NCBI GenBank assembly: GCA_052388375.1
Contig: JBQTIG010000081.1
Coordinates: 20,215 to 84,214 of the forward strand
DNA: 64,000 bases
Reading direction: 5' to 3'
Origin: Planctomycetaceae bacterium
GTDB lineage: Bacteria > Planctomycetota > PLA2
Of this stretch, positions 52,712 through 63,629 are shown piece by piece. Under the pieces are notes generated by a model. The model saw only the letters and a program-made list of their open reading frames with translations. It did not search any database and had not been told where the DNA came from. The position numbers and the translations under genes are program-made. The number at the start of each line of letters is the position of its first letter. Position 1 is the stretch's first letter.

Positions 52712-53266
52712 ATGGCAGGCCCGATCACGCAGGTCCTCCTCGACGTGCAGCGCGGCACCCCCGGCGCGCGCGATGAGCTGTTTCGGCTCTCGTACGAGGC
52801 GCTGAAGCGGCTCGCCAACGCGCAGATGCGCGACCAGCCGCAGGGGCACACGCTCCAGCCGACCGCGCTCGTCAACGAGGCATGCCTCAGGCTCCTCGGG
52901 AGCAGCGCGGAGGTCTACCGTGACCGCGGCGTCTTCTTCTCGGTCGCGTCGAAGGCGATGAGGTCGATCCTCGTCGACTGGGCGCGCGCGAAGGGCGCGC
53001 TCAAGCGGGGCGGTCCGCGCGCGCAGGTCACCTGGCGCGAGGACCTCGCGACCTGGGCGCCGTCGGCCGAGGAGGTGCTGTCGGTCCACGACGCGCTCGA
53101 GAAGCTCGAGGGGATCGACCCGTCGCTCGCGAGGGTCGTGGACCTCCGCTTCTTCGCCGGCCTCTCGGCGGCGGAGGCCGCGTGCGCCATGGAGGTGAGC
53201 GAGCGCCACCTCTTCTCGCTCTGGGAGCACGCGCGGGCCTGGCTCTTCCGGGAGCTGCACGCGTGA
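52712..53266 (+). CDS. ECF-type RNA polymerase sigma factor of the Ser/Thr-kinase-associated group (TIGR02999-like)
   Basis: MAGPITQVLLDVQRGTPGARDELFRLSYEALKRLA...LQPTALVNEACLRL... C-terminal region-4 HTH. Its stop TGA (53264-53266) overlaps the GTG of the kinase gene. Confidence 0.7.
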   Translation: MAGPITQVLLDVQRGTPGARDELFRLSYEALKRLANAQMRDQPQGHTLQPTALVNEACLRLLGSSAEVYRDRGVFFSVASKAMRSILVDWARAKGALKRGGPRAQVTWREDLATWAPSAEEVLSVHDALEKLEGIDPSLARVVDLRFFAGLSAAEAACAMEVSERHLFSLWEHARAWLFRELHA

Positions 53267-56200
53267 ACGCGGAGCGGGTGCGGGAGGTGATGGAGGGGGC
53301 GCTCGCACGCGACACCGACGAGATCCCGCGCTTTCTCGACGAGAGCTGCGGTCCGGACGCAGAGCTCCGGGCCGACGTGGAGTCGCTGCTCGCGGCGCGC
53401 AAGCGGATGGGCCGCTACCTCGAAATGCCCGCCGCAGCGGCGCTCGCGCGCGACGCGGAGCTCGCCCCCGGCCAGCGCGTCGGCGGCTACGAGATCCTCG
53501 GCGTGATCGGCCGCGGCGGCAGCGGCGTCGTCTACCGCGCGCGCCAGAAGAGCCCCGATCGCGTCGTCGCCCTCAAGACGTTGCGGCTGCGGCTCGGAGG
53601 CGACGAGGCACGCTTCCTCGATGAGACGCAGACGCTGGCCCGCTTCCGGCATCCGGCGATCGCGCACATCTACGAGGCGGGGGTGCACGAGGGCGTGCCC
53701 TTCTTCTCGATGGAATTCGTGGAGGGCCCTGGAACCATCGTGGACTACGCGCTGGCGCACGGGCTCGACGCGCGAGCGCGGCTCGAGCTCCTCGCGCGGG
53801 TCGCGGACGGTGTCCACTACGGCCACCAGCGCGGCGTCATCCACTGCGACCTCAAACCGGGGAACATCCTCGTCGGCGACGACGGGGCGCCGCGGATCGT
53901 GGACTTCGGGATTGCGCGCACCGGCGTCATGAACGAGGGCGACACCGAGCTCAGGGGCACGCTCCGGTACATGAGCCCGGAGCAGTGCCAGGGCGGCGCG
54001 GAGCCTGTGGACGTGCGCTCCGACGTCTACGCGCTCGGCGTCGTCCTCTACGAGCTGCTCACCGGCCGCCTGCCGATCGACGTCTCCTCGGGGTCGATCA
54101 CGCAAGCGCGCCGGCGGATCCTCGGCGAGGCGCCCGTCCGCATCGAGAGCGTCGCGCCGCGGTTCAGGGGCGACGTCGCCGCGATCGTGCACAAGGCGCT
54201 TGAGAAGGACCGCGAACGGCGCTACGCGTCGGCTGCGGCGCTGGCGGACGATCTCCGCCGCCACCTGACCGACCGGGTGGTCGAGGCCGCCCCCGCGGGC
54301 GTCTGGGTGCAGGTCCGGAAGTTCGCGAGGCGCCAGCGCCTCGCCTTCCTCTCGTTCGCGACCCTGGGCGTCGTCCTCGCAGCGGCGGCCGCCGTGAGCA
54401 GCTGGCTCGCAGTCGAGTACCGCGACCAGCGGACCGCGGCGCAGTATGAGGCGTACCTCGCCAACGTCGCGGCCGCCGCGGCGGCGCTCGAGGGAGGCGA
54501 CGTCGGCGAGGCCACGCTGCGCCTCGACCACGCGCGCGAGGCCTTTCGGGGATGGGAGTGGCACCACCTCCGAAGCAGGCTCGACACGAGCGTGGCGACG
54601 GTCGAGTGGCCCGGCGTCGGGATCGGGGGGGGCGCGCTCAGCGCGGACGGGCGGACGCTCGTGGCCGCGGCCGGAGCCCTTCGCGCGTGGGAGCTGGCCG
54701 CCGAGCGCGTGTTGTTCACCGTCCCGAGGGAGCCGGGGCGCCGCGCCGACGTCGTCGCCCTCTCGCCGGACGGCCAGCGGATCGTCACGGGGTACGGCAG
54801 CGGGCGGGTCGATGTCCGAAGCGCGCGGACCGGGGAGGTCCTCGCGGTCGCGGGGCGACACGAGAAGCAGGTGAGCATGGTGTCGTTCCACCCCGACGGA
54901 ACGCGCTTCGCTTCGGCGGCGTACGACGGCACGGTCCGGATTTCCGACGCTGCGACCGGCGCCTTGCTCGCCACGATTCGCGCCCATCCCGGCGTGCTGC
55001 TCGCGGTCCGTTACGACCGGACGGGCACGCGGATCGCGACCGGCGGGGACGACGGCCGCGCGCGCGTGTTCGCGGCCGACTCGGGCGAGCCGCTCGCGTT
55101 ACTCTCCGGACACGAGAGCCACGTCGAGGACGTTGCCTTCAGTCCGGACGGCAAGAGGCTCGTGTCGGCGTCGATGGACCAGACGCTCCGGCTGTGGGAC
55201 ATCGCCTCCTCTACGATGCTCGCGGTGCGCCCGGCGCACAAGAGCGGGGTCAAGGGCGTTGCGTGGAGCCCGGACGGCCGGACGATCGCGAGCTGCTCCA
55301 TCGACAGCACCGTCCGCCTCTGGAACGCGGACGACCTCTCGGCGATCGCGACCTATCGGGGACACCGGGCGCGCGTCTACCAGGTGGAGTACGCGACGGA
55401 CGGCGCGCGGATCGCGTCGTTTTCGGGGGACGGGACCGTCAGGCTCTGGGATGTCGCCAGGAGTGACGATGTCCCTTGGCTCAAGAGCCGCGGAGGCCGC
55501 GTCGGCGCCCTCGCGTTCTCGTCCGACGGCGAGCTCGTGGCTCTTGCCGCAGCGAACGGATCGATCGAGCTCTGGAGCGCCTCCTCGGGCGCGCTGGTCC
55601 GGACGCTCGCAGGCGGCGCGCCCGCGTCAGCCGTTCGGTTCCTGGACGGGTCGCGCCGCGTCGTGGCCATCCTTCCGCGCAAGGTCGCCTCCTGGACCGT
55701 CGAGAACGGGGCGGCCGAGCCCCAGCGCGCCGTGTCCGTCGACCTCCACGGCGCCCTGATCGCGGCGGACGGACGAATCGTCGCCTGGCACGAGGGCGAC
55801 GTGCTGGAGCTCGACGCCGCGACAGGCGCGGTGCTCTCGCGCTGGAACGCGCACTCGGAACCCGTACGCGCCGCGGCCCTTCATGAGGGTCGGGGCTGGC
55901 TCGTGACCGTCTCCCTCTCGGGCGAGGTCCGGCTCTGGCACCGGTCGGGGGGAGATCCGGTCGCGATGGTTTCGGTGCCCGACGCGAGAGCGCCCACGCT
56001 CGCATTCCATCCGGACGGAGAGCTGGTCGTCGTCGGGTTCGCGAACGGCACTGCAACGCTTCTCTCCGTCCCCGGCCTCGCGACCAAGGCCACGTTCGTC
56101 ACGGGCTCGCAGCTCCAGGTCGTGGAGTTCTCCCCCGACGGCAGCCGCCTCGCTGCTTGCTCTGGGGACGGGACGTTCCAGCTCTGGGACCCCTCGACCG

Positions 56201-56337
56201 CGCGGCAGGCGGTCGCGCTCCGCGGCCACCGCTACGCCGTGAGCGCCGTCGCGTGGAGCCCGGACGGGCGCTCCATCGCGACGGCGGAGAACTTCACCGA
56301 CATCGTGCGGTTCTGGCGGTCGGAACCGGCGCGCTGA
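53263..56337 (+). CDS. Ser/Thr protein kinase with a TM segment and a C-terminal WD40 beta-propeller (about 12+ repeats)
   Basis: GTG 53263, or ATG 53290. Kinase motifs GRGGSGVVYRA, VALK, HCDLKPGNIL, DFGIA. A TM helix (LAFLSFATLGVVLAAAAAVSSWLAV) then WD40 repeats (SPDG.R..TG..DG.VR.W). Confidence 0.85.
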   Translation: MNAERVREVMEGALARDTDEIPRFLDESCGPDAELRADVESLLAARKRMGRYLEMPAAAALARDAELAPGQRVGGYEILGVIGRGGSGVVYRARQKSPDRVVALKTLRLRLGGDEARFLDETQTLARFRHPAIAHIYEAGVHEGVPFFSMEFVEGPGTIVDYALAHGLDARARLELLARVADGVHYGHQRGVIHCDLKPGNILVGDDGAPRIVDFGIARTGVMNEGDTELRGTLRYMSPEQCQGGAEPVDVRSDVYALGVVLYELLTGRLPIDVSSGSITQARRRILGEAPVRIESVAPRFRGDVAAIVHKALEKDRERRYASAAALADDLRRHLTDRVVEAAPAGVWVQVRKFARRQRLAFLSFATLGVVLAAAAAVSSWLAVEYRDQRTAAQYEAYLANVAAAAAALEGGDVGEATLRLDHAREAFRGWEWHHLRSRLDTSVATVEWPGVGIGGGALSADGRTLVAAAGALRAWELAAERVLFTVPREPGRRADVVALSPDGQRIVTGYGSGRVDVRSARTGEVLAVAGRHEKQVSMVSFHPDGTRFASAAYDGTVRISDAATGALLATIRAHPGVLLAVRYDRTGTRIATGGDDGRARVFAADSGEPLALLSGHESHVEDVAFSPDGKRLVSASMDQTLRLWDIASSTMLAVRPAHKSGVKGVAWSPDGRTIASCSIDSTVRLWNADDLSAIATYRGHRARVYQVEYATDGARIASFSGDGTVRLWDVARSDDVPWLKSRGGRVGALAFSSDGELVALAAANGSIELWSASSGALVRTLAGGAPASAVRFLDGSRRVVAILPRKVASWTVENGAAEPQRAVSVDLHGALIAADGRIVAWHEGDVLELDAATGAVLSRWNAHSEPVRAAALHEGRGWLVTVSLSGEVRLWHRSGGDPVAMVSVPDARAPTLAFHPDGELVVVGFANGTATLLSVPGLATKATFVTGSQLQVVEFSPDGSRLAACSGDGTFQLWDPSTARQAVALRGHRYAVSAVAWSPDGRSIATAENFTDIVRFWRSEPAR

Positions 56338-56369: not shown

Positions 56370-56374
56370 TGGAT

Positions 56375-56585
56375 CTCTGCGCTACGGGAGCCGCCCGAAC
56401 CCCCAGTCCGGCTCGGTGCTGCTGCCGTCCGGCTGGTTCGGGATCTCCGCGGCGTTGCTGTTGGTCCCGGTGGCATCGACGAGCCAGAGTCGGGCCGGAC
56501 TCAACTCGTTGTTCTGGCGCGCGAAGACGATGCGGTCCGACATCGGCGACCACGACGGCGTGAGGTCGGACTGGTGCGCCCCGCC
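56375..56585. repeat. About 200-bp direct repeat, copy A (3' end of the beta-propeller lipoprotein gene)
   Basis: About 85% identical to 60392-60595 in the same orientation. The copies are 4020 bp apart. Confidence 0.7.
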
Positions 56586-59500
56586 GGCGGTCACGTTCGC
56601 AGGGCCGCTGCCCGCGCTGTCCGTCCTGACGATCCGCAACCGCCCGACGCTCCCGTAGCGCTGGAGCACGAACCCCACGGGCCCCCAGTCGACCGACCAG
56701 TCGAGCCCTAAACTCTCGCCGATGATCGTCGGCGCCGTCGCGCCGTCCGCGGGCACTACGTACTTCGCCCCGGAATTGCAATACGCGATCCTCGCCCCGT
56801 CCGGAGACCATGAGAGGTGCTCGATATCCCGGTGCGGGAGAGTGCTGATCTCGACCGGCGGCGTCCCCGGCGGCATGCCGAGGTCGAAGATCAAGATCCG
56901 GTCGAAGTACCCCGCGTCCCCTACCGCGCACGCCACCTTGCGCAGGCCCGCGACCGGCGACCACGCCGGGTCGCGTGCCGAGCGCTGGCCGGTGAAGTTG
57001 GTCAGCGGCGTCACGGGGGGCGGCGCCGGATCGGCGCCGTTGAAGGGCATCACCATGAGGTCGAAGTGCGTGCCGCCGCCCTCGCTGTTGCTGACGAACG
57101 CGATCTGTGCACGGTCCGGCGACCAGGCGGGGTCCCAGTCCTCCCGAACGTTGACCGTCAGCTGCCGCCGGCCGCCGCCCGCGGCGTCGATGACCCAGAT
57201 CTCCGTGTCCTCGCCGAGGGCAGGCGGCTTGTTCGAGAAGACGATGAGGTCCGCCGGCTCGGCCGGAGGCGGGCCAGGGGGCGGCGGCTCCTCGGTATCG
57301 GGAGGGGGCGTCGTGAATCCGAGGCACTGGCGGGCGACAACCGTGTCGGTCACCGGCAACGACGGCGTCACGACCTCGATGATGTCCTCGAAGGGAGGCG
57401 CCTCCGGCGCGGTCGCGGAGGGCGCCTGTACCTCGACATCCACCTCGAACGGCAAAGTCTCCCCGCCCTCGACGCGCTCGAGCTCGGCCTGACAGCGGCC
57501 GTCAGCGGCGATGTGACCATCGGGTCCGACACGGAGGACCCAGGCGTCCCCGCGCACCTCCACGGAATCGGAGCGTCCGACCAGCAGCGCGCCGCCGGGG
57601 ACCGCCCGGAGACCGGACAGCCTCTCGTCCAGCATACCTCCGTAGGCCTGCGCCCAATCCCAGCCTCCCGTCGCGCTGACGCGCATGAGAATCCAGTCTT
57701 GGCCGCTGGGGCGCATGAGAGGCTTGTTTTCGCCGGTGACCGGGTCCATGCCGAAGTCGTTCTCGATCGTGGCCGCGACATAGACATCGCCCTCGGAGCC
57801 TCGGACGACACGATACGAGCCTTCGCCGATCACCCAAGGCGCGTCCCACCTCCGCATCGACGCGTGGCGAATCGCCCCGTCCGGCGCCATGTCGACGACG
57901 AACACATGAGGCGTCTCGCTGAACGCCCCGCCGTTGCTTCGCACCGCTCCTGCGAACAGCGCGCCTTGGCGATCGATTGTGCAGACAGCCGCGACCGGGC
58001 TGACCTCGGAACCTGGCGCGGGACCGGCAACGGACCCAAAGAACCGCACACGATACGACGAACGCGCGCTTCCGTCCTGGTCGAACGCCTGTACCTCGAA
58101 CCCGGAGTCGACGGCGCTCACGGTGGCGAACTCCGCCGGCGCGGTCGCGCCGAGCGCGAAGAGCTTGGTCTGCCAGGAGCCGGGAACGGCAATCCGCCAT
58201 GCAGCCTCGCCGTTGCCGAGAATGCGAGTCACCAGGACCGTCGCGTTGTCCTTCCCATGCGCCAGCAGGACACTCGCATCGGCAAGCACGGCCGACGAGG
58301 CGGGGGGTCGTCGGGCCTCGGCGGTCCTCACGAGCCTGGACCAGACGGGGAGGCCCGTGACGTCGAGGCGCGCGATCCACGGCCCGAACTGTTCGTAGTC
58401 GAACTCCCAGGATCCGATGAGCACGTAGCCGTCGTGGTGCTTTCGCGCCGGGTCAATGGCGAGCAGGTGAACATCATGGACCCTCTCGCGATCAGGACCG
58501 TCTGCCGAATGGAACGCGTTGGCATCCCAGATCATGGCCAGCGCGGCGTCGAGGCGGCGGACGCGGCCGCTGCGGGACCAGATGCACGTCTCTCCGTCCG
58601 CATCCCGAGTGACGCGGTCACCGTCGCCGAGGTCGAGAATCTCCTCCCCAGCCGCCTCCCAGTTGAGACGCACCCTTCTGACGCCCGTCTCGCGGCCAGG
58701 CCCGTAGAGCTCGGTGTACTCGACATCCCCATCCATGTGCGAAGTCACCGCCACCCGAACGTCTAGGTAAACGACGCGGTTGAACCCGTTCGCAGGGGCG
58801 AGTGGCCGCGCCTGGAGGCGCCCACCGTCTTGGGGATCGAACCGTATGAGCCAGTTCGTCGCAGAGCGGAAGTCCCACAGGACTCCAACGAACTCGCAAG
58901 ACGCGCCCGCCGGGCACGGCGCGATGCCCGCGCCTACGACCGAGTACCTGCCGAGGTCGCCGAACTCTGAGTACCAGAGCTCCCGACCATCCTGCTCGTA
59001 GAGCGCCGCAAAGACCTCGTCTCCGCTCCCCTCCGGGAAGGTCGAACTGTAGGTCCTCCCCAGCAGGAAGAGCCGGCCCAGCTCGTTGACCGCCCCGGCC
59101 ACCGCGTCGAAGTTACCCTCGAAGGTATGCCACCGGACGACTCCGCCGGAGTCGATCCGCCCGAAGCGCGTGCTCTCTTCCACCGCTGTCAGCCCAACGT
59201 TCGAAAACGTCCCGCGGGCCCAGAAGTAGACGTCCGAGTTCCCGCCGACGGCGACACCCAGCTTCACGGGCCGGTCATGCAGGCTGGGGTACTCGTGCAC
59301 GTATTCACGTATGTCGTCCACGATCTGGCGCTGCCACAAGACGTCGCCGTTCGGCGCCAGCCTGGCTACCCAAGGCACACGCACGGTGTACGCGGCCGCT
59401 ACCCTGGGGTCGGGATCGATGTCGATGCGCGCGTGCGAGACGGCCGCGAGCACGAGGCCCCCGTCGGGGGTGGACTGGGCGTCCTCAAGGAAGTCGTCCG

Positions 59501-59996
59501 GCTTCTCATCGGCAAAGTACAGATGCTCACCGGCCACACTGTCGAGGCCATACCGGCGCTGCCACGCGATTCGGCCGGCCCCGTCGATGTAGGTCACGAT
59601 GAGATCCACGCTGCTGGAACCTCCCTCGTGGGCTATTGCGCTCTTGTCCGGAGGTTCCGGCAACAACGTAGAGACCACAAAGGCGGCCCCCAGGGATGCC
59701 GGCACCACCACGGTGTCCTCCTGCGACCCGCCGGATCGTCCGAGGACGCGCTCCCATAGCGGGTCGCCGTAGGCGTCCAGGCCGACCACCCACGCGTCCA
59801 TGTTGCTCGTGCCCACGGCATCGCGCGTGGCTGCCACGACGTGGCTTCCGTCCGGAAGCACCTCGCCTGAGGCGGCGGCGTCCCGGAGCAGGGCGCCGTA
59901 CGACTTGGCCCACGTCGGCTCGCTGCTGGACCCCTCGGCGCATCCTTGCAGGAACGCCAAGGCGGCGCAGGCGACGAAGATGGTTGACCGCCCCAT
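56382..59996 (-). CDS. Giant lipoprotein with beta-propeller repeats and a TolB-like (PD40) C-terminal region
   Basis: 1204 aa. Signal peptide plus lipobox (AALAFLQGC). Repeated beta-strand-rich units. The C-terminus has WSPDG/WSPM...RIVF repeats typical of PD40/TolB-like propellers. Confidence 0.6.
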   Translation of the reverse strand: MGRSTIFVACAALAFLQGCAEGSSSEPTWAKSYGALLRDAAASGEVLPDGSHVVAATRDAVGTSNMDAWVVGLDAYGDPLWERVLGRSGGSQEDTVVVPASLGAAFVVSTLLPEPPDKSAIAHEGGSSSVDLIVTYIDGAGRIAWQRRYGLDSVAGEHLYFADEKPDDFLEDAQSTPDGGLVLAAVSHARIDIDPDPRVAAAYTVRVPWVARLAPNGDVLWQRQIVDDIREYVHEYPSLHDRPVKLGVAVGGNSDVYFWARGTFSNVGLTAVEESTRFGRIDSGGVVRWHTFEGNFDAVAGAVNELGRLFLLGRTYSSTFPEGSGDEVFAALYEQDGRELWYSEFGDLGRYSVVGAGIAPCPAGASCEFVGVLWDFRSATNWLIRFDPQDGGRLQARPLAPANGFNRVVYLDVRVAVTSHMDGDVEYTELYGPGRETGVRRVRLNWEAAGEEILDLGDGDRVTRDADGETCIWSRSGRVRRLDAALAMIWDANAFHSADGPDRERVHDVHLLAIDPARKHHDGYVLIGSWEFDYEQFGPWIARLDVTGLPVWSRLVRTAEARRPPASSAVLADASVLLAHGKDNATVLVTRILGNGEAAWRIAVPGSWQTKLFALGATAPAEFATVSAVDSGFEVQAFDQDGSARSSYRVRFFGSVAGPAPGSEVSPVAAVCTIDRQGALFAGAVRSNGGAFSETPHVFVVDMAPDGAIRHASMRRWDAPWVIGEGSYRVVRGSEGDVYVAATIENDFGMDPVTGENKPLMRPSGQDWILMRVSATGGWDWAQAYGGMLDERLSGLRAVPGGALLVGRSDSVEVRGDAWVLRVGPDGHIAADGRCQAELERVEGGETLPFEVDVEVQAPSATAPEAPPFEDIIEVVTPSLPVTDTVVARQCLGFTTPPPDTEEPPPPGPPPAEPADLIVFSNKPPALGEDTEIWVIDAAGGGRRQLTVNVREDWDPAWSPDRAQIAFVSNSEGGGTHFDLMVMPFNGADPAPPPVTPLTNFTGQRSARDPAWSPVAGLRKVACAVGDAGYFDRILIFDLGMPPGTPPVEISTLPHRDIEHLSWSPDGARIAYCNSGAKYVVPADGATAPTIIGESLGLDWSVDWGPVGFVLQRYGSVGRLRIVRTDSAGSGPANVTAGGAHQSDLTPSWSPMSDRIVFARQNNELSPARLWLVDATGTNSNAAEIPNQPDGSSTEPDWGFGRLP

Positions 59997-60391
59997 GATC
60001 GACCTCCAGTGCGGGTCAGAACTCGAGCACCGCGTTCAATGACCACAGACGGGTTCTGCGCTTCAGGACTGCAGGAGTTCCGAGGCGTCTCGCGAGTTCC
60101 CTTCTGGGCGGCCCCGAGCGGGGCCAGGGGCGGGTCCACGCCGGGCAACGCGGGGCGCCTCCTACGCCCAGCGAACTTGCCCCCGGCCCGCGACCGCCGG
60201 CCCTCCCGGTGCGCGCCGTAGCGCTGGGCTGGGCGCACCGGCCGGCAGCCTTGAGCCAGGGGCAGGCGAGACACGCAAGCACGAAGACAAGATCCCAGAG
60301 AACCGGTGTGTCGACCCGCTAGAACAGCATGTAACGGTTGCTCGTCCTCAAGGCCGGCGGCTGCCTTGGGCGCACTGCATCTGTCTTCGTG

Positions 60392-60595
60392 CTAGGGGAG
60401 CGGCGGTAACCCCCAGTCCGGCTCGGTGTTGCTGCCCGTGGGCTGGTTCGGGATCTCCACAGCGTTGCTGTTGGTCCCGGTGGCATGGACAGGCCATGGC
60501 CGGCCCGGGGTCATCTCGTTGTCCTGGCGCACGAAGACGATGCGGTCCGGGGACGGCGACCACGACCGCGTGAGGTCGGACTGGTGCGCCCCGCC
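60392..60595 (-). pseudogene. Duplicated 3'-terminal fragment of the beta-propeller lipoprotein gene (direct repeat copy B)
   Basis: It encodes ...GGAHQSDLTRSWSPSPDRIVFVRQDNEMTPGRPWPVHATGTNSNAVEIPNQPTGSNTEPDWGLPPLP. The parent C-terminus reads ...GGAHQSDLTPSWSPMSDRIVFARQNNELSPARLWLVDATGTNSNAAEIPNQPDGSSTEPDWGFGRLP. The upstream part of ORF 60392..60898 is unrelated sequence. Confidence 0.6.
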
Positions 60596-60789
60596 ACGAC
60601 TCTCGACGCGCTCAAGGCCACGGCTGACGTTTGTGGATAGGCAGGGATTCTCTTCTTGTTGTCGCTGTCGAACGCCAGGGGGAGGAGCGCGAGGCGGTAG
60701 GGGCCGGCGGCGGCGGCCCGATCGCACACGGCGTCGAGGAGCGCCTGGAGGTCTTGCGCTGCGCGTTCCACGACCTCGATCCCGTCCAG

Positions 60790-60882
60790 CCTCCCCGAGG
60801 ACCAGGCCAATGAGGTGCTGGAGCTGATCGACTCCCTGGAGCAGTTCGACGACGTGCAGCAGGTCTTTCACGCCCTGGCGTG
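60790..60882 (+). pseudogene. 3'-terminal remnant of a YebC/PmpR-family gene
   Basis: + frame: ...SLPEDQANEVLELIDSLEQFDDVQQVFHALA*. It matches the YebC C-terminus (E. coli ...[23 protein letters not shown]...). There is no upstream body. Confidence 0.45.
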
Positions 60883-60917
60883 AGAGCGGGGGAGGCACAG
60901 GAAGGGGGCGGGGACCG

Positions 60918-63629
60918 CTACTTCCTCTCGGCGTCCAGAAACGTCAGCCGGTTCGTGGGCGCCGGCCGCACTTCAAAGCCGTCCAGCCGGAATCCCGTCC
61001 ACTCCTCGGCGCGCCGGAGGCAATCCCCCTTGGGCCAGTAGAGGGGGGCGAGGTTCCAGAGGCGGATCGTCTTGTCCGAAGACCTCGACGCGATCCGGCT
61101 CCCGTCCGGGCTGAACGCGACCGACATCACCGCGTCTGCGTGCCCCTCCAGCCGCGCGACCTCCTTCCCCAAGGAGGCGTCCCAGAGGCGGACAGTCTTG
61201 TCCCAAGACCCCGACGCGAACCGGCTCCCGTCCGGGCTGAACGCGAGGCACGTCACGCCGACCCCGCACGGTGATGTCCAACTGCTACGTGTTGGAGCCG
61301 AACCGATTGCAGCGATCAGCCCGCCCCTCGCTTGCGGGTCATCCTCGATATCGCAAGCGCTCGCGAACAGCAAGGACCTTCCGGCTGGGGATTCCGTTCC
61401 GGCTGCCCGGAAGCCGTATGCCGTCGCTAGATGGTGCTCCGCCTCCGCGAGCGCGCGCGTCTTGTCCTCGGCCAGCCGCGTCGCCCTGTCCCGCTCCCGC
61501 CCCTCCGATTCCGCCAGCCGCGTCGCCCGATCCTCGGCCGCCCGCGCCGCGTTCCGCTGCTTGCGGAGCGAATCCAGGAAGAGCAGCGTCCCCGCCACGA
61601 TCACCACCACCGCCGCCGCCGACGTGATCGCCACCGCCGCGTGCCGTTGCACCCAGAGGCGCAACAGATACCCCAGGCTCGGCGGCCGCGCCGACACCGG
61701 GTTGCCCTGCGCGAATCGCCCCAGATCCTCCGCCAGCGCCGCCGCGCTCGCATACCGGCGCCCAGGGTCCCGCTCCATCGCCTTCCGGATCACCGCGTCC
61801 AGGTCCTTGGGCACGGTCCGCTCCACCTTCCGCGGCGCCGCCGGCGACTCCCGCAGCACCTTCGCCAGGAGCGCCTCCGTCGTCTCCGCCTCGTACGGCG
61901 CCCGACCGGTCGCCAGCTCGTACAGCGTCGCCCCGAGCCCATAAACGTCCGCCCGCGCGTCCACCCTCGTCACCGCGTGCGTCACCTGCTCCGGCGCCGC
62001 GTACTTCAGCGTCCCGAGCACCGCCGCCGGATTGGTCAGCGACGCCTCCCCGGCCACCTTCGCCAGCCCCAGGTCCATCACCACCACCCGCCCGTCCGGC
62101 GTCACCATCAGGTTGGCCGGCTTGATGTCCCGGTGGATCACCCCGCGCTCGTGGAGGTGCTGCAATCCCAGCGCGGCGTCGTGAGAGACCTCCGCGAGCC
62201 GCCGGTACGGATCTCCGGGAGGATGCGGAGGACGGGGGCGGGGCACGGCCGGCAGGCCTCCAAAGGCCTCCGGCATCTCCCTCCTCTTGCGCTCCGACAC
62301 CGTCGAGACCGCGCTCTCGAGGTCCCGGCTCGACCCCTCCTTCAGCGTCTCCGCGACCTCCCTGAGGTCGCACCCCTCCACGTACTCCATCGCGTACCAG
62401 AACAGCCCCTCCGTCCGTCCCGACGCCAGGATCCGCACCACATGAGGGTGGTCGCTGCGCGCCAGCGCCCGCACCTCCCGCGCAAACCGCGCCGCCGCCA
62501 CGTCGTCGCTCGAGAGCGCTGGCGGCATCATCTTCAGCGCCACCAGCCGCCCAAGGCTCCGCTGTCGCGCCAGATAGACCGTCCCCATCCCCCCTTCGCC
62601 CAGCTTCGCCAGGAGGTCGAACTCCCCAAACCGCCGCGCCGTCGCCGGCGCCGCCTCCGCCGCAGGCTCCGGCTGGTCCGACAGGCTCTGCGCCTGGAGC
62701 GCCTTGAGCTTGTCCGCCGTGACCTCCGCGCCCAGCAGCCGCCCCAGGATCCGGCGGTGGTCCTCCAAGAGCTCCGGCGCCGGGGAGGTCTCCCCCGTCA
62801 CGTAGTCCAGATACTCCACCTTCCGCTCGATCTGCGACCGATTCAGGAAGAGCACCCCCTCCTCCGGACCGCCGGAGGCGCACACGAGCAGCGGGTGCAG
62901 GTCGAGCCAGGCCTCGCCCCGCTTCAGGTAGAGGTGGCCCGCCCGGAGCTTCTCCCCGCCTTCCCTCAGCGTCGTCCGCAGCGCGTCGGTGCCCGTGAGG
63001 TCCCATAGCTCGATGGTGCGGGGCCCCGAGCCGGTCTCCCGCACCTCCGCCACGTAGGTCAGCACCGTCCGGCCGAGGAGCGCGACTTTGTCGAGCAGCT
63101 CCACCGCGGCCGCCAGCAGCGCCTCGCCCATCTCCGCGTAGTACCCCTCGTCGCGCACCGCGCCGTGGCCGAGCACCTGATTCCGATAGGCCGGGATGCG
63201 ATTGAGGAAGTCGAGGACCTTGACCTTCCCTCCGGCGCGCTCGCCCATCGCCTTCAGGCAGGCACCGATCGCGGGGAGGTCGTCGCGCGGCTGGAGCAGC
63301 AGCGCCGAGACGCCCGCGATCTCCGGGAACGGGTGCGGCTCGAGCCCTGCCGTCGCAGCTGCAACCTCGCGCAGGAACTCCACCCAGTGCCCCAGGGAGG
63401 GAAGGGCGAGGTTGGCCAGCCGCCTGTCGAGCGCCTCGTCGCGCGCGCCGCCCGCCAGATAGGCCGCGATCTGCGCCGCACCCGCCGCCTTGATGGTGGA
63501 CTCGATCAGGTAGAAGGCGTTGTGGTGCCGGTCGCTGCGCGCCTTGGCGTTGAAGGCCCGCCGGTACAGCCGCGCCAGCGGCAGCGGCAGCCGGTCGCGC
63601 AGATCGGTGCGGAAGCCCTCGATCGCCAT
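60918..63629 (-). CDS. Ser/Thr protein kinase with an about 330-aa N-terminal domain of unknown function and a short C-terminal WD40 segment
   Basis: 903 aa. Kinase motifs LGEGGMGTVYLA, VALK, HRDIKPANLM, DLGLA, APE. A TM helix (AAVAITSAAAVVVIVAGTLLFL). Two WD40 repeats at the C-terminus. I did not recognise the N-terminal domain (MAIEGFRTDLRDRLPLPLARLYRRAFNAKARSDRHHNAFYLIESTIKAAG...). Confidence 0.8.
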   Translation of the reverse strand: MAIEGFRTDLRDRLPLPLARLYRRAFNAKARSDRHHNAFYLIESTIKAAGAAQIAAYLAGGARDEALDRRLANLALPSLGHWVEFLREVAAATAGLEPHPFPEIAGVSALLLQPRDDLPAIGACLKAMGERAGGKVKVLDFLNRIPAYRNQVLGHGAVRDEGYYAEMGEALLAAAVELLDKVALLGRTVLTYVAEVRETGSGPRTIELWDLTGTDALRTTLREGGEKLRAGHLYLKRGEAWLDLHPLLVCASGGPEEGVLFLNRSQIERKVEYLDYVTGETSPAPELLEDHRRILGRLLGAEVTADKLKALQAQSLSDQPEPAAEAAPATARRFGEFDLLAKLGEGGMGTVYLARQRSLGRLVALKMMPPALSSDDVAAARFAREVRALARSDHPHVVRILASGRTEGLFWYAMEYVEGCDLREVAETLKEGSSRDLESAVSTVSERKRREMPEAFGGLPAVPRPRPPHPPGDPYRRLAEVSHDAALGLQHLHERGVIHRDIKPANLMVTPDGRVVVMDLGLAKVAGEASLTNPAAVLGTLKYAAPEQVTHAVTRVDARADVYGLGATLYELATGRAPYEAETTEALLAKVLRESPAAPRKVERTVPKDLDAVIRKAMERDPGRRYASAAALAEDLGRFAQGNPVSARPPSLGYLLRLWVQRHAAVAITSAAAVVVIVAGTLLFLDSLRKQRNAARAAEDRATRLAESEGRERDRATRLAEDKTRALAEAEHHLATAYGFRAAGTESPAGRSLLFASACDIEDDPQARGGLIAAIGSAPTRSSWTSPCGVGVTCLAFSPDGSRFASGSWDKTVRLWDASLGKEVARLEGHADAVMSVAFSPDGSRIASRSSDKTIRLWNLAPLYWPKGDCLRRAEEWTGFRLDGFEVRPAPTNRLTFLDAERK
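61076..61255. repeat. Near-identical tandem DNA repeat encoding consecutive WD40 units inside the kinase gene
   Basis: The units cgacgcgatccggctcccgtccgggctgaacgcgac and cgacgcgaaccggctcccgtccgggctgaacgcgag lie about 120 bp apart. They encode AFSPDGSRIASRSSDKTIRLW and AFSPDGSRFASGSWDKTVRLW. Confidence 0.6.

Follow-up and report, generated by a model that had tools for sequence, protein, structure and literature searches.

A putative membrane receptor kinase with a predicted HEPN-type RNase domain in a Planctomycetaceae bacterium and its relatives

The KEN domain of the kinases Ire1 and RNase L is a HEPN ribonuclease (RNase), and in both proteins pairing of the kinase domains aligns two KEN domains. 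HEPN RNases are dimers with a composite active site in which two Rx4-6H motifs face each other, and PknB-type kinases are activated by dimerisation. The gene described here lies in a 64,000-nucleotide stretch of DNA from a Planctomycetaceae bacterium (GenBank assembly GCA_052388375.1, contig JBQTIG010000081.1, positions 20,215 to 84,214; hereafter the window), and predicts a protein of 903 amino acids (aa). Like Ire1 and RNase L, it appears to combine, in one polypeptide, a protein kinase with a HEPN-type domain whose Rx4-6H motif is intact and, like Ire1, it has a single transmembrane (TM) helix and a putative sensor on the opposite side of the membrane. Unlike them, it has the HEPN domain N-terminal to the kinase, the sensor at the C-terminus and an OB-like barrel between HEPN and kinase; its kinase is PknB-like (best PDB relatives PknB, 1e-47), and there is no sequence similarity to KEN. 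A KEN domain directly C-terminal to an Ire1-type kinase, which defines the Ire1/RNase L family, is absent, and the analogy is a functional one only. The reversed order, the PknB-like kinase and the lack of KEN similarity, together with a survey of the HEPN superfamily that lists kinase fusions for eukaryotic KEN only (PMC3710099), therefore argue for an independent fusion. The reading preferred here, with a probability of roughly 0.6, is that of a receptor kinase coupled to a cytoplasmic predicted RNase, analogous to Ire1 and RNase L and assembled independently in the reverse order.

Parts of the protein resemble other described groups. The WD40/TPR membrane kinases of Planctomycetota and Myxococcota (PMC11032199), exemplified in the window by the gene at 53182..56337 (kinase 1), also combine a kinase, a single TM helix and a C-terminal WD40 or TPR array. 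However, they are without the 334 aa HEPN-OB module, kinase 1 having only ~100 aa before its kinase domain, whereas the family described here has an extra kinase insert of ~45-60 aa and the present member just two WD40 units. Prokaryotic HEPN toxins and effectors (LsoA/RnlA, HepN-MNT, Csm6/Csx1 and Abi-type) share the four-helix core, the Rx4-6H motif and the acidic residue of helix 2, and an N-terminal effector placement is likewise seen here on TIR/AAA_35 and TPR proteins. In contrast to them, the present domain matches no Pfam or PADLOC profile, has a large four-helix insert (~75 aa) between helices 2 and 3, and is fixed to an OB-like barrel and, mostly, to a Hanks kinase. No description of a bacterial HEPN-Hanks-kinase receptor was found in the literature searched, and publications elsewhere may exist. 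The N-terminal domain (N-domain) is classified as a new family of HEPN domains, whose architecture is both new and widespread.

The assignment to HEPN draws on a small set of conserved residues and on their place in a predicted structure. R149 and H155 are invariant in an alignment of 43 diverse members (A1), and N150, E43 and K47 are nearly so. Residue counts over 156 domain instances in 150 representatives, taken from non-gap instances for R, N and H, are given in Table 1, and the conservation of R/N/H and E/K spans relatives that are just 30-40% identical. The AlphaFold2 model of the N-domain, calculated with alignment A1, has a predicted local distance difference test score (pLDDT) of 93.3 and a predicted template modelling score of 0.92. 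Residues 8-181 form its helical half and residues 189-283 a half rich in beta strands, and two linking helices complete it; aa 1-187 modelled alone reach a pLDDT of 95.6. E43-x3-K47 lies within the helix at 31-60, and the four-helix insert occupies 65-127. R149-N150 forms the end of the helix at 138-153, H155 is in the loop that follows, and the helix at 161-181 comes next.

A HEPN domain has been defined (PMC3710099) by a core of four helices in which an insert separates helix 2 from helix 3, by a polar residue that follows the R, and by an acidic residue of helix 2 that is often part of Ex3[KR]. Because E43-x3-K47, the 65-127 insert, R149-N150 and H155 stand at the defined positions, all of these features are judged to be present, namely the R149-N150-x4-H155 motif and its position, the helix-2 Ex3[KR] and the insert between helices 2 and 3. 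The HEPN domains tabulated in the analysis, each with its value, are Roquin HEPN (8.5, 7.7), TTHA0636 (7.2), AF0298 (7.2), LsoA (6.7), an AMPylated HEPN toxin (6.4), HI0074 (6.4) and sacsin HEPN (6.2). A HEPN-type fold for the N-domain is considered likely, with good confidence. Residues 1-186 probably represent a metal-independent endoribonuclease domain of HEPN type, and aa 187-284 a putative OB-like barrel that probably holds RNA. We infer RNase activity, dimer-dependent activation, an RNA target, a WD40 part outside the cytoplasm and a biological role.

In the preliminary description of this DNA the N-domain was called uncharacterised. It has no match in the libraries, but it is not an orphan, as it heads a family of >1000 clusters and resolves into the predicted HEPN-type bundle and OB-like barrel. 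When 1.84 billion cluster representatives were scanned exhaustively with HMMER, 1018 were recovered at E<=1e-3, including 190 at E<=1e-30, and the match is nearly always at the extreme N-terminus of proteins of 800-2800 aa. Architectures were counted in the best 150 of these 1018 representatives. The kinase directly follows the N-domain in 138/150, starting 2-20 aa after it, and a TM helix is found <=150 aa after the kinase in 118 of 132 relatives. WD40 arrays, mostly of 7-21 units, are present in 50 relatives, and TPR in others.

Fusions of the N-domain to other outputs, raised as a question when the gene was first described, do occur. Without a kinase, it is joined to TIR and AAA_35 (P0009 and P0085), to AAA_35 alone (P0033) or to TPR (P0090 and a Myxococcota locus, L003), and in TIR/AAA_35 proteins it occupies the place where effector domains usually sit. 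The AAA_35 of P0009, P0085 and P0033 is a STAND-like ATPase, an architecture typical of conflict or defence proteins. One further kinase-free protein, P0006, has four tandem copies of the N-domain. P0006 is a JGI metagenome protein of 1412 aa, in which copies 2 and 3 retain R and H, copy 1 lacks R or H, and copy 4 is partial; by analogy with Cas13, the two HEPN sites in this chain could form an intramolecular dimer.

Public annotations of family members are only 'serine/threonine protein kinase', 'WD40 repeat protein/serine/threonine protein kinase' or 'hypothetical protein'. A genome search with the single protein returned two loci, the nearest in a Planctomycetota metagenome-assembled genome (MAG) with 69% identity (L002), and a distant one in a Myxococcota MAG. 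A word-indexed protein search gave 0 matches with the N-domain alone and 1 with the family profile (8000 candidates), which is a failure of sensitivity; since the exhaustive search found >1000 clusters, this null result is no sign of orphan status. The Ala/Leu/Arg-rich words of a high-GC protein probably saturate the candidate list in that search.

The kinase domain is detected by Pfam Pkinase at aa 339-633 in two stretches, split by an insert. All motifs of a Hanks-type Ser/Thr kinase are present, namely the G-loop (GEGGMG), VAxK (VALK363), HRDxKxxN (HRDIKPAN499), DxG (DLG) and APE. Across 134 family kinases, HRDxKxxN is retained in 126, DxG in 126 and VAxK in 131. The Pro- and charge-rich insert lies at aa ~425-480, between the N-lobe (VALK363) and the catalytic loop (HRD499), and is common to the family, the median spacing from VAxK to HRD being 148 aa compared with 88 aa in kinase 1 next to it; in the present protein it measures ~45 aa. 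The insert may serve as a loop for regulation or phosphorylation. The kinases of Ire1 and RNase L were rejected as homologues, PknB-type kinases being nearest. Membership of the PD-T4-6, MADS mad6, MkoA and PglW systems (PADLOC) was also rejected, as the kinase domain alone matches and no partner genes are nearby.

The 903 aa open reading frame (ORF) runs from ATG to stop, and its N-terminal sequence is as quoted in the preliminary description. The G+C content of its third codon positions (GC3) is 0.91, typical of credible genes in a window of ~70% GC, and an independent Logan assembly (contig L001) carries the same gene with 100% identity over 9069 bp. The ORF is real. The sole hydrophobic segment, aa 664-686, is the only 19 aa stretch with a Kyte-Doolittle mean >1.6. 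Because there is a single such segment, the N-domain and kinase are on the same side of the membrane, and because the kinase needs adenosine triphosphate and there is one TM helix, the HEPN-OB-kinase unit is placed in the cytoplasm and the coiled coil, WD40 units and tail outside it. The earlier view that the N-terminal third is cytoplasmic and precedes the kinase is thus upheld. Cytoplasmic kinases with periplasmic repeats have been predicted for the Planctomycetota WD40/TPR kinases (PMC11032199), and the layout here, with a WD40 part predicted to lie outside the cytoplasm, agrees. The charged coiled-coil linker that connects the TM helix to the WD40 units contains a tandem duplication of 42 nt (14 aa, 'DRATRLAE...') at 61468-61491 and 61510-61533.

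Several results weigh against a kinase-coupled RNase. The HEPN site was read from a motif alignment and from secondary-structure positions of a model, and no sequence-profile method ties the N-domain to any established HEPN family, profile similarity to such a family having been sought in Pfam, PADLOC, NCBIfam and PDB profiles. Residues 1-334 gave no match to Pfam even at E<=10 and none to NCBIfam; no PADLOC model matched them, all PADLOC matches of the protein being confined to the kinase. A Pfam scan (E<=10) of the N-domains of 43 family members was also without a match. Searches of PDB sequences with phmmer and hmmsearch gave nothing informative, the PDB profile search was not significant, and Foldseek against the PDB returned nothing significant. 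That the N-terminal third had gone unrecognised is therefore borne out for the curated sequence libraries, and a sequence match to a well-known domain family, which would have overturned that description, was found in none of Pfam, NCBIfam, PADLOC and PDB. No relatives were found on the viral contigs searched, and no conserved operon partner, gene neighbourhood or defence-island context was found in the window, L001, L002, L003 and the orthologue's locus (L004). The two-blade sensor may also be non-functional as a ligand receptor.

The alternative that best survives is a HEPN-like fold without nuclease activity, that is, a regulatory, dimerisation or nucleotide/RNA-binding module that governs the kinase or presents substrates, for which the HEPN domains of Roquin, sacsin and MtlR and the nucleotidyltransferase-associated HEPNs are models. 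However, non-catalytic HEPN families typically lose Rx4-6H (PMC3710099), whereas here R, N, H and E/K are kept in 148-154 of 152-156 instances, and in TIR/AAA_35 proteins the module occupies the position of an effector; this alternative is considered unlikely. That the HEPN likeness is a chance similarity of helical bundles, and that a new fold family of other chemistry has been placed on the kinase, is very improbable.

If the N-domain is a kinase-coupled RNase, the protein would be a single-pass membrane receptor kinase in whose cytoplasmic unit the HEPN RNase (1-186) and the OB-like RNA-holding barrel (187-284) precede an active kinase of PknB type (335-650). Across the membrane, a coiled coil would be followed by the two WD40 blades and the short conserved tail. 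Extracytoplasmic clustering, through a sensor that in relatives is a WD40 array of 7-21 units or TPR, would pair the kinase domains; with just two blades, a chain could not complete a propeller by itself and may do so together with other chains. Pairing and autophosphorylation of the kinases would then align two HEPN domains with their Rx4-6H motifs facing, giving a competent RNase that would cleave cellular or invader RNA. Alternatively, the kinase may regulate the HEPN domain by phosphorylating it directly, for which the AMPylation of HepN toxins by their MNT partners offers an analogue (compare PDB 8xdj).

The tight, invariant HEPN-OB-kinase linkage and the membrane-sensor architecture suggest logic of the Ire1/RNase L type, and Ire1-like activation driven by oligomerisation is, by this analogy, possible at somewhat less than even odds. 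Held with similarly modest confidence is the broadest form of the proposal, a large unannotated class of bacterial receptor kinases in several phyla that would convert an extracytoplasmic signal into cytoplasmic RNA cleavage by a kinase-coupled HEPN RNase, as a counterpart of Ire1/RNase L evolved independently, with an intermolecular WD40 propeller as the oligomerisation switch in two-blade members. The role could be stress signalling or a defence of the abortive-infection type; the TIR/AAA_35 fusions and variable sensors point to conflict systems, but the housekeeping neighbourhoods do not.

The protein has exactly two WD40 units, at aa 779-859, as the preliminary description had it; this is borne out by Pfam, and a unit hidden Markov model agrees. 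WD40 propellers have four to twelve blades per chain, usually seven (PMC6805158), so although WD40 repeat units are present, two are too few to close a propeller in one chain. The same description saw near-identical tandem DNA repeats at 61076-61255 and a truncated tail, and took the near-identity as a sign of very recent duplication or deletion. The cores of the units are indeed unusually alike, with a 78-nt repeat at 61053-61130 and 61179-61256 (period 126 nt, one WD40 unit) of 87% identity. Taken by unit, 66/78 nt are shared, with 16/17 identical codons at identical residues, compared with 30-53 of 78 nt for other WD-unit pairs in the window. Near-identity does not extend to the whole 126-nt units, which are only ~65% identical, the first ~16 residues and codons being unrelated.

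A very recent duplication or deletion, or an assembly collapse, with the C-terminus a fresh truncation or a decaying remnant, would be in keeping with the 85-87% identity of the cores, far above that of other WD-unit pairs, with the 7-21 units of most WD-bearing relatives and with the 212-nt duplication that adjoins. However, the closest relative (P0001, 79% identity overall), an orthologue from another JGI sample (3300019487) and in a different gene neighbourhood (L004), has the same architecture, with two WD40 units and then the same 42 aa tail. Codon comparison with this orthologue gives a synonymous divergence (dS) of 0.68 and a ratio of nonsynonymous to synonymous divergence (dN/dS) of 0.21 overall, with values of 0.18 for HEPN, 0.20 for OB and linker, 0.19 for the kinase, 0.36 for the WD units and 0.18 for the tail. 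Since the orthologue shares the two-unit state at this dS, and since the units and tail have such dN/dS values, the state is old and under purifying selection, and the claim of very recent change does not hold. An assembly collapse is rejected by the same gene in the Logan assembly and the same two units in the orthologue.

The likeness of the cores has a different explanation. The two units of the gene (W1 and W2) are closer to each other (66/78 nt) than to their orthologous counterparts (W1-O1 60/78 and W2-O2 61/78), and in each lineage both units share synonymous or replacement states of their own, the window gene having CCG, AGC and GCG where the orthologue has CCC, ACC and GCC (Pro, Ser/Thr and Ala). 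Gene conversion that acted between the units after the lineages split is the best explanation of these patterns, and no recent duplication or deletion is therefore needed to account for the DNA likeness.

Nor was the view of the tail as truncated borne out, as the 42 aa segment resembles that found after full arrays of 12-20 units in relatives. Its match to P0001 is at 1.9e-22, and weak matches follow the arrays of P0127 (WD array ends at 1698, match 1704-1738), P0081 (1831, match 1849-1869) and P0048 (1713, match 1723-1750); the linker before the array resembles the linker of P0048. As tail and linker resemble those that flank full arrays, both native ends of the array have been kept and the interior lost, and by this sequence comparison the WD40 tail is an array contracted from within and not one cut off at its 3′ end. 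Recent origin or collapse of the WD40 pair is very improbable.

Two-blade WD40 fragments of bacterial proteins form tetramers that are 8-bladed propellers (PMC6805158). The two-unit tail here may fold and drive oligomerisation in a similar way, but the described fragments are engineered and have identical blades, whereas the units here are natural, differ in the first ~16 residues and have an extra tail. By analogy, an intermolecular propeller built from two-blade tails, itself driving oligomerisation, is plausible.

Table 1. Positions in the window of the features of the 903 aa gene
Feature	Position	Strand	Evidence
Whole gene, predicted HEPN-OB-kinase-TM-coiled coil-2xWD40-tail, 903 aa	60918..63629	-	ORF, GC3, L001 copy, orthologue L004 dN/dS 0.21
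Predicted HEPN-type helical bundle, aa 1-186	63072..63629	-	helices 16-26, 31-60, insert, 138-153, 161-181
E43-x3-K47, acidic/basic pair of helix 2 (HEPN Ex3[KR] motif)	63489..63503	-	E 154/156, K/R 153/156
R149-N150-x4-H155	63165..63185	-	R 152/152, N 148/152, H 150/152 non-gap instances; predicted secondary structure
Beta-rich subdomain, OB-like small barrel, aa 187-284	62778..63071	-	
Two helices and linker between N-domain and kinase, aa 285-334	62628..62777	-	AlphaFold2 model
Hanks-type Ser/Thr kinase, aa 335-650, with insert of ~45 aa	61680..62627	-	Pfam Pkinase 8.6e-42
Single TM helix, aa about 663-685	61575..61643	-	Kyte-Doolittle
Charged coiled-coil-like linker, aa 686-778, with 14 aa duplication	61296..61574	-	similar to linkers of P0001, P0048
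Two WD40 units, aa 779-861; 78-nt cores 61179-61256 and 61053-61130	61047..61295	-	Pfam WD40 1.1e-22
Conserved post-array tail, aa 862-903 (LAPLYWPKGDCLRRAEEWTGFRLDGFEVRPAPTNRL...)	60921..61046	-	P0001 match 1.9e-22, dN/dS 0.18

The gene had been introduced as the second Ser/Thr kinase of its region, which is correct, the first kinase-TM-WD40 gene being at 53182..56337(+). That gene predicts a canonical PknB-type kinase that lacks the HEPN-OB module and has, besides a TM helix, roughly 9-14 WD40 units. Its WD units, alike at 30-48 of 78 nt, are far more diverged than the pair in the second kinase. A direct repeat of 212 nt (56374-56585 and 60384-60595, 85% identity, 4010 nt apart) corresponds to the 3′ end of a PD40/Tricorn_N-like gene of 1204 aa (56382..59996, -) that has been copied as a fragment just downstream of the kinase gene, where the copy falls inside a spurious-looking 168 aa ORF (60392..60898). 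A paralogue or a local rearrangement probably left this duplication behind. The WD40 repeats had been tied to these recombination scars next door, a connection that no test made here supports.

The orthologue's context (L004, 4101-7201) shows no synteny with the window. Its upstream side has, past a 210 aa gene on the opposite strand, a cyclic nucleotide (cNMP)-binding SpoIIE/PP2C phosphatase and, farther away in the same direction, a gene for a caspase-like Peptidase_C14. In that genome the phosphatase could act as the kinase's partner.

If the proposed reading is true, kinase-gated HEPN RNases are not a eukaryotic invention, and in Planctomycetota, Myxococcota and their relatives >1000 sequence clusters would couple sensing at the envelope to the cleavage of RNA. 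The huge WD40/TPR kinase repertoires of these bacteria would then have a testable model, and the HEPN-OB module would be a new type of effector in bacterial signalling or immunity. The family would also offer a compact natural system in which to study activation of a HEPN nuclease by kinase pairing, and the two-blade WD40 tail, conserved by selection, is one of the rare candidates in nature for a multi-chain propeller.

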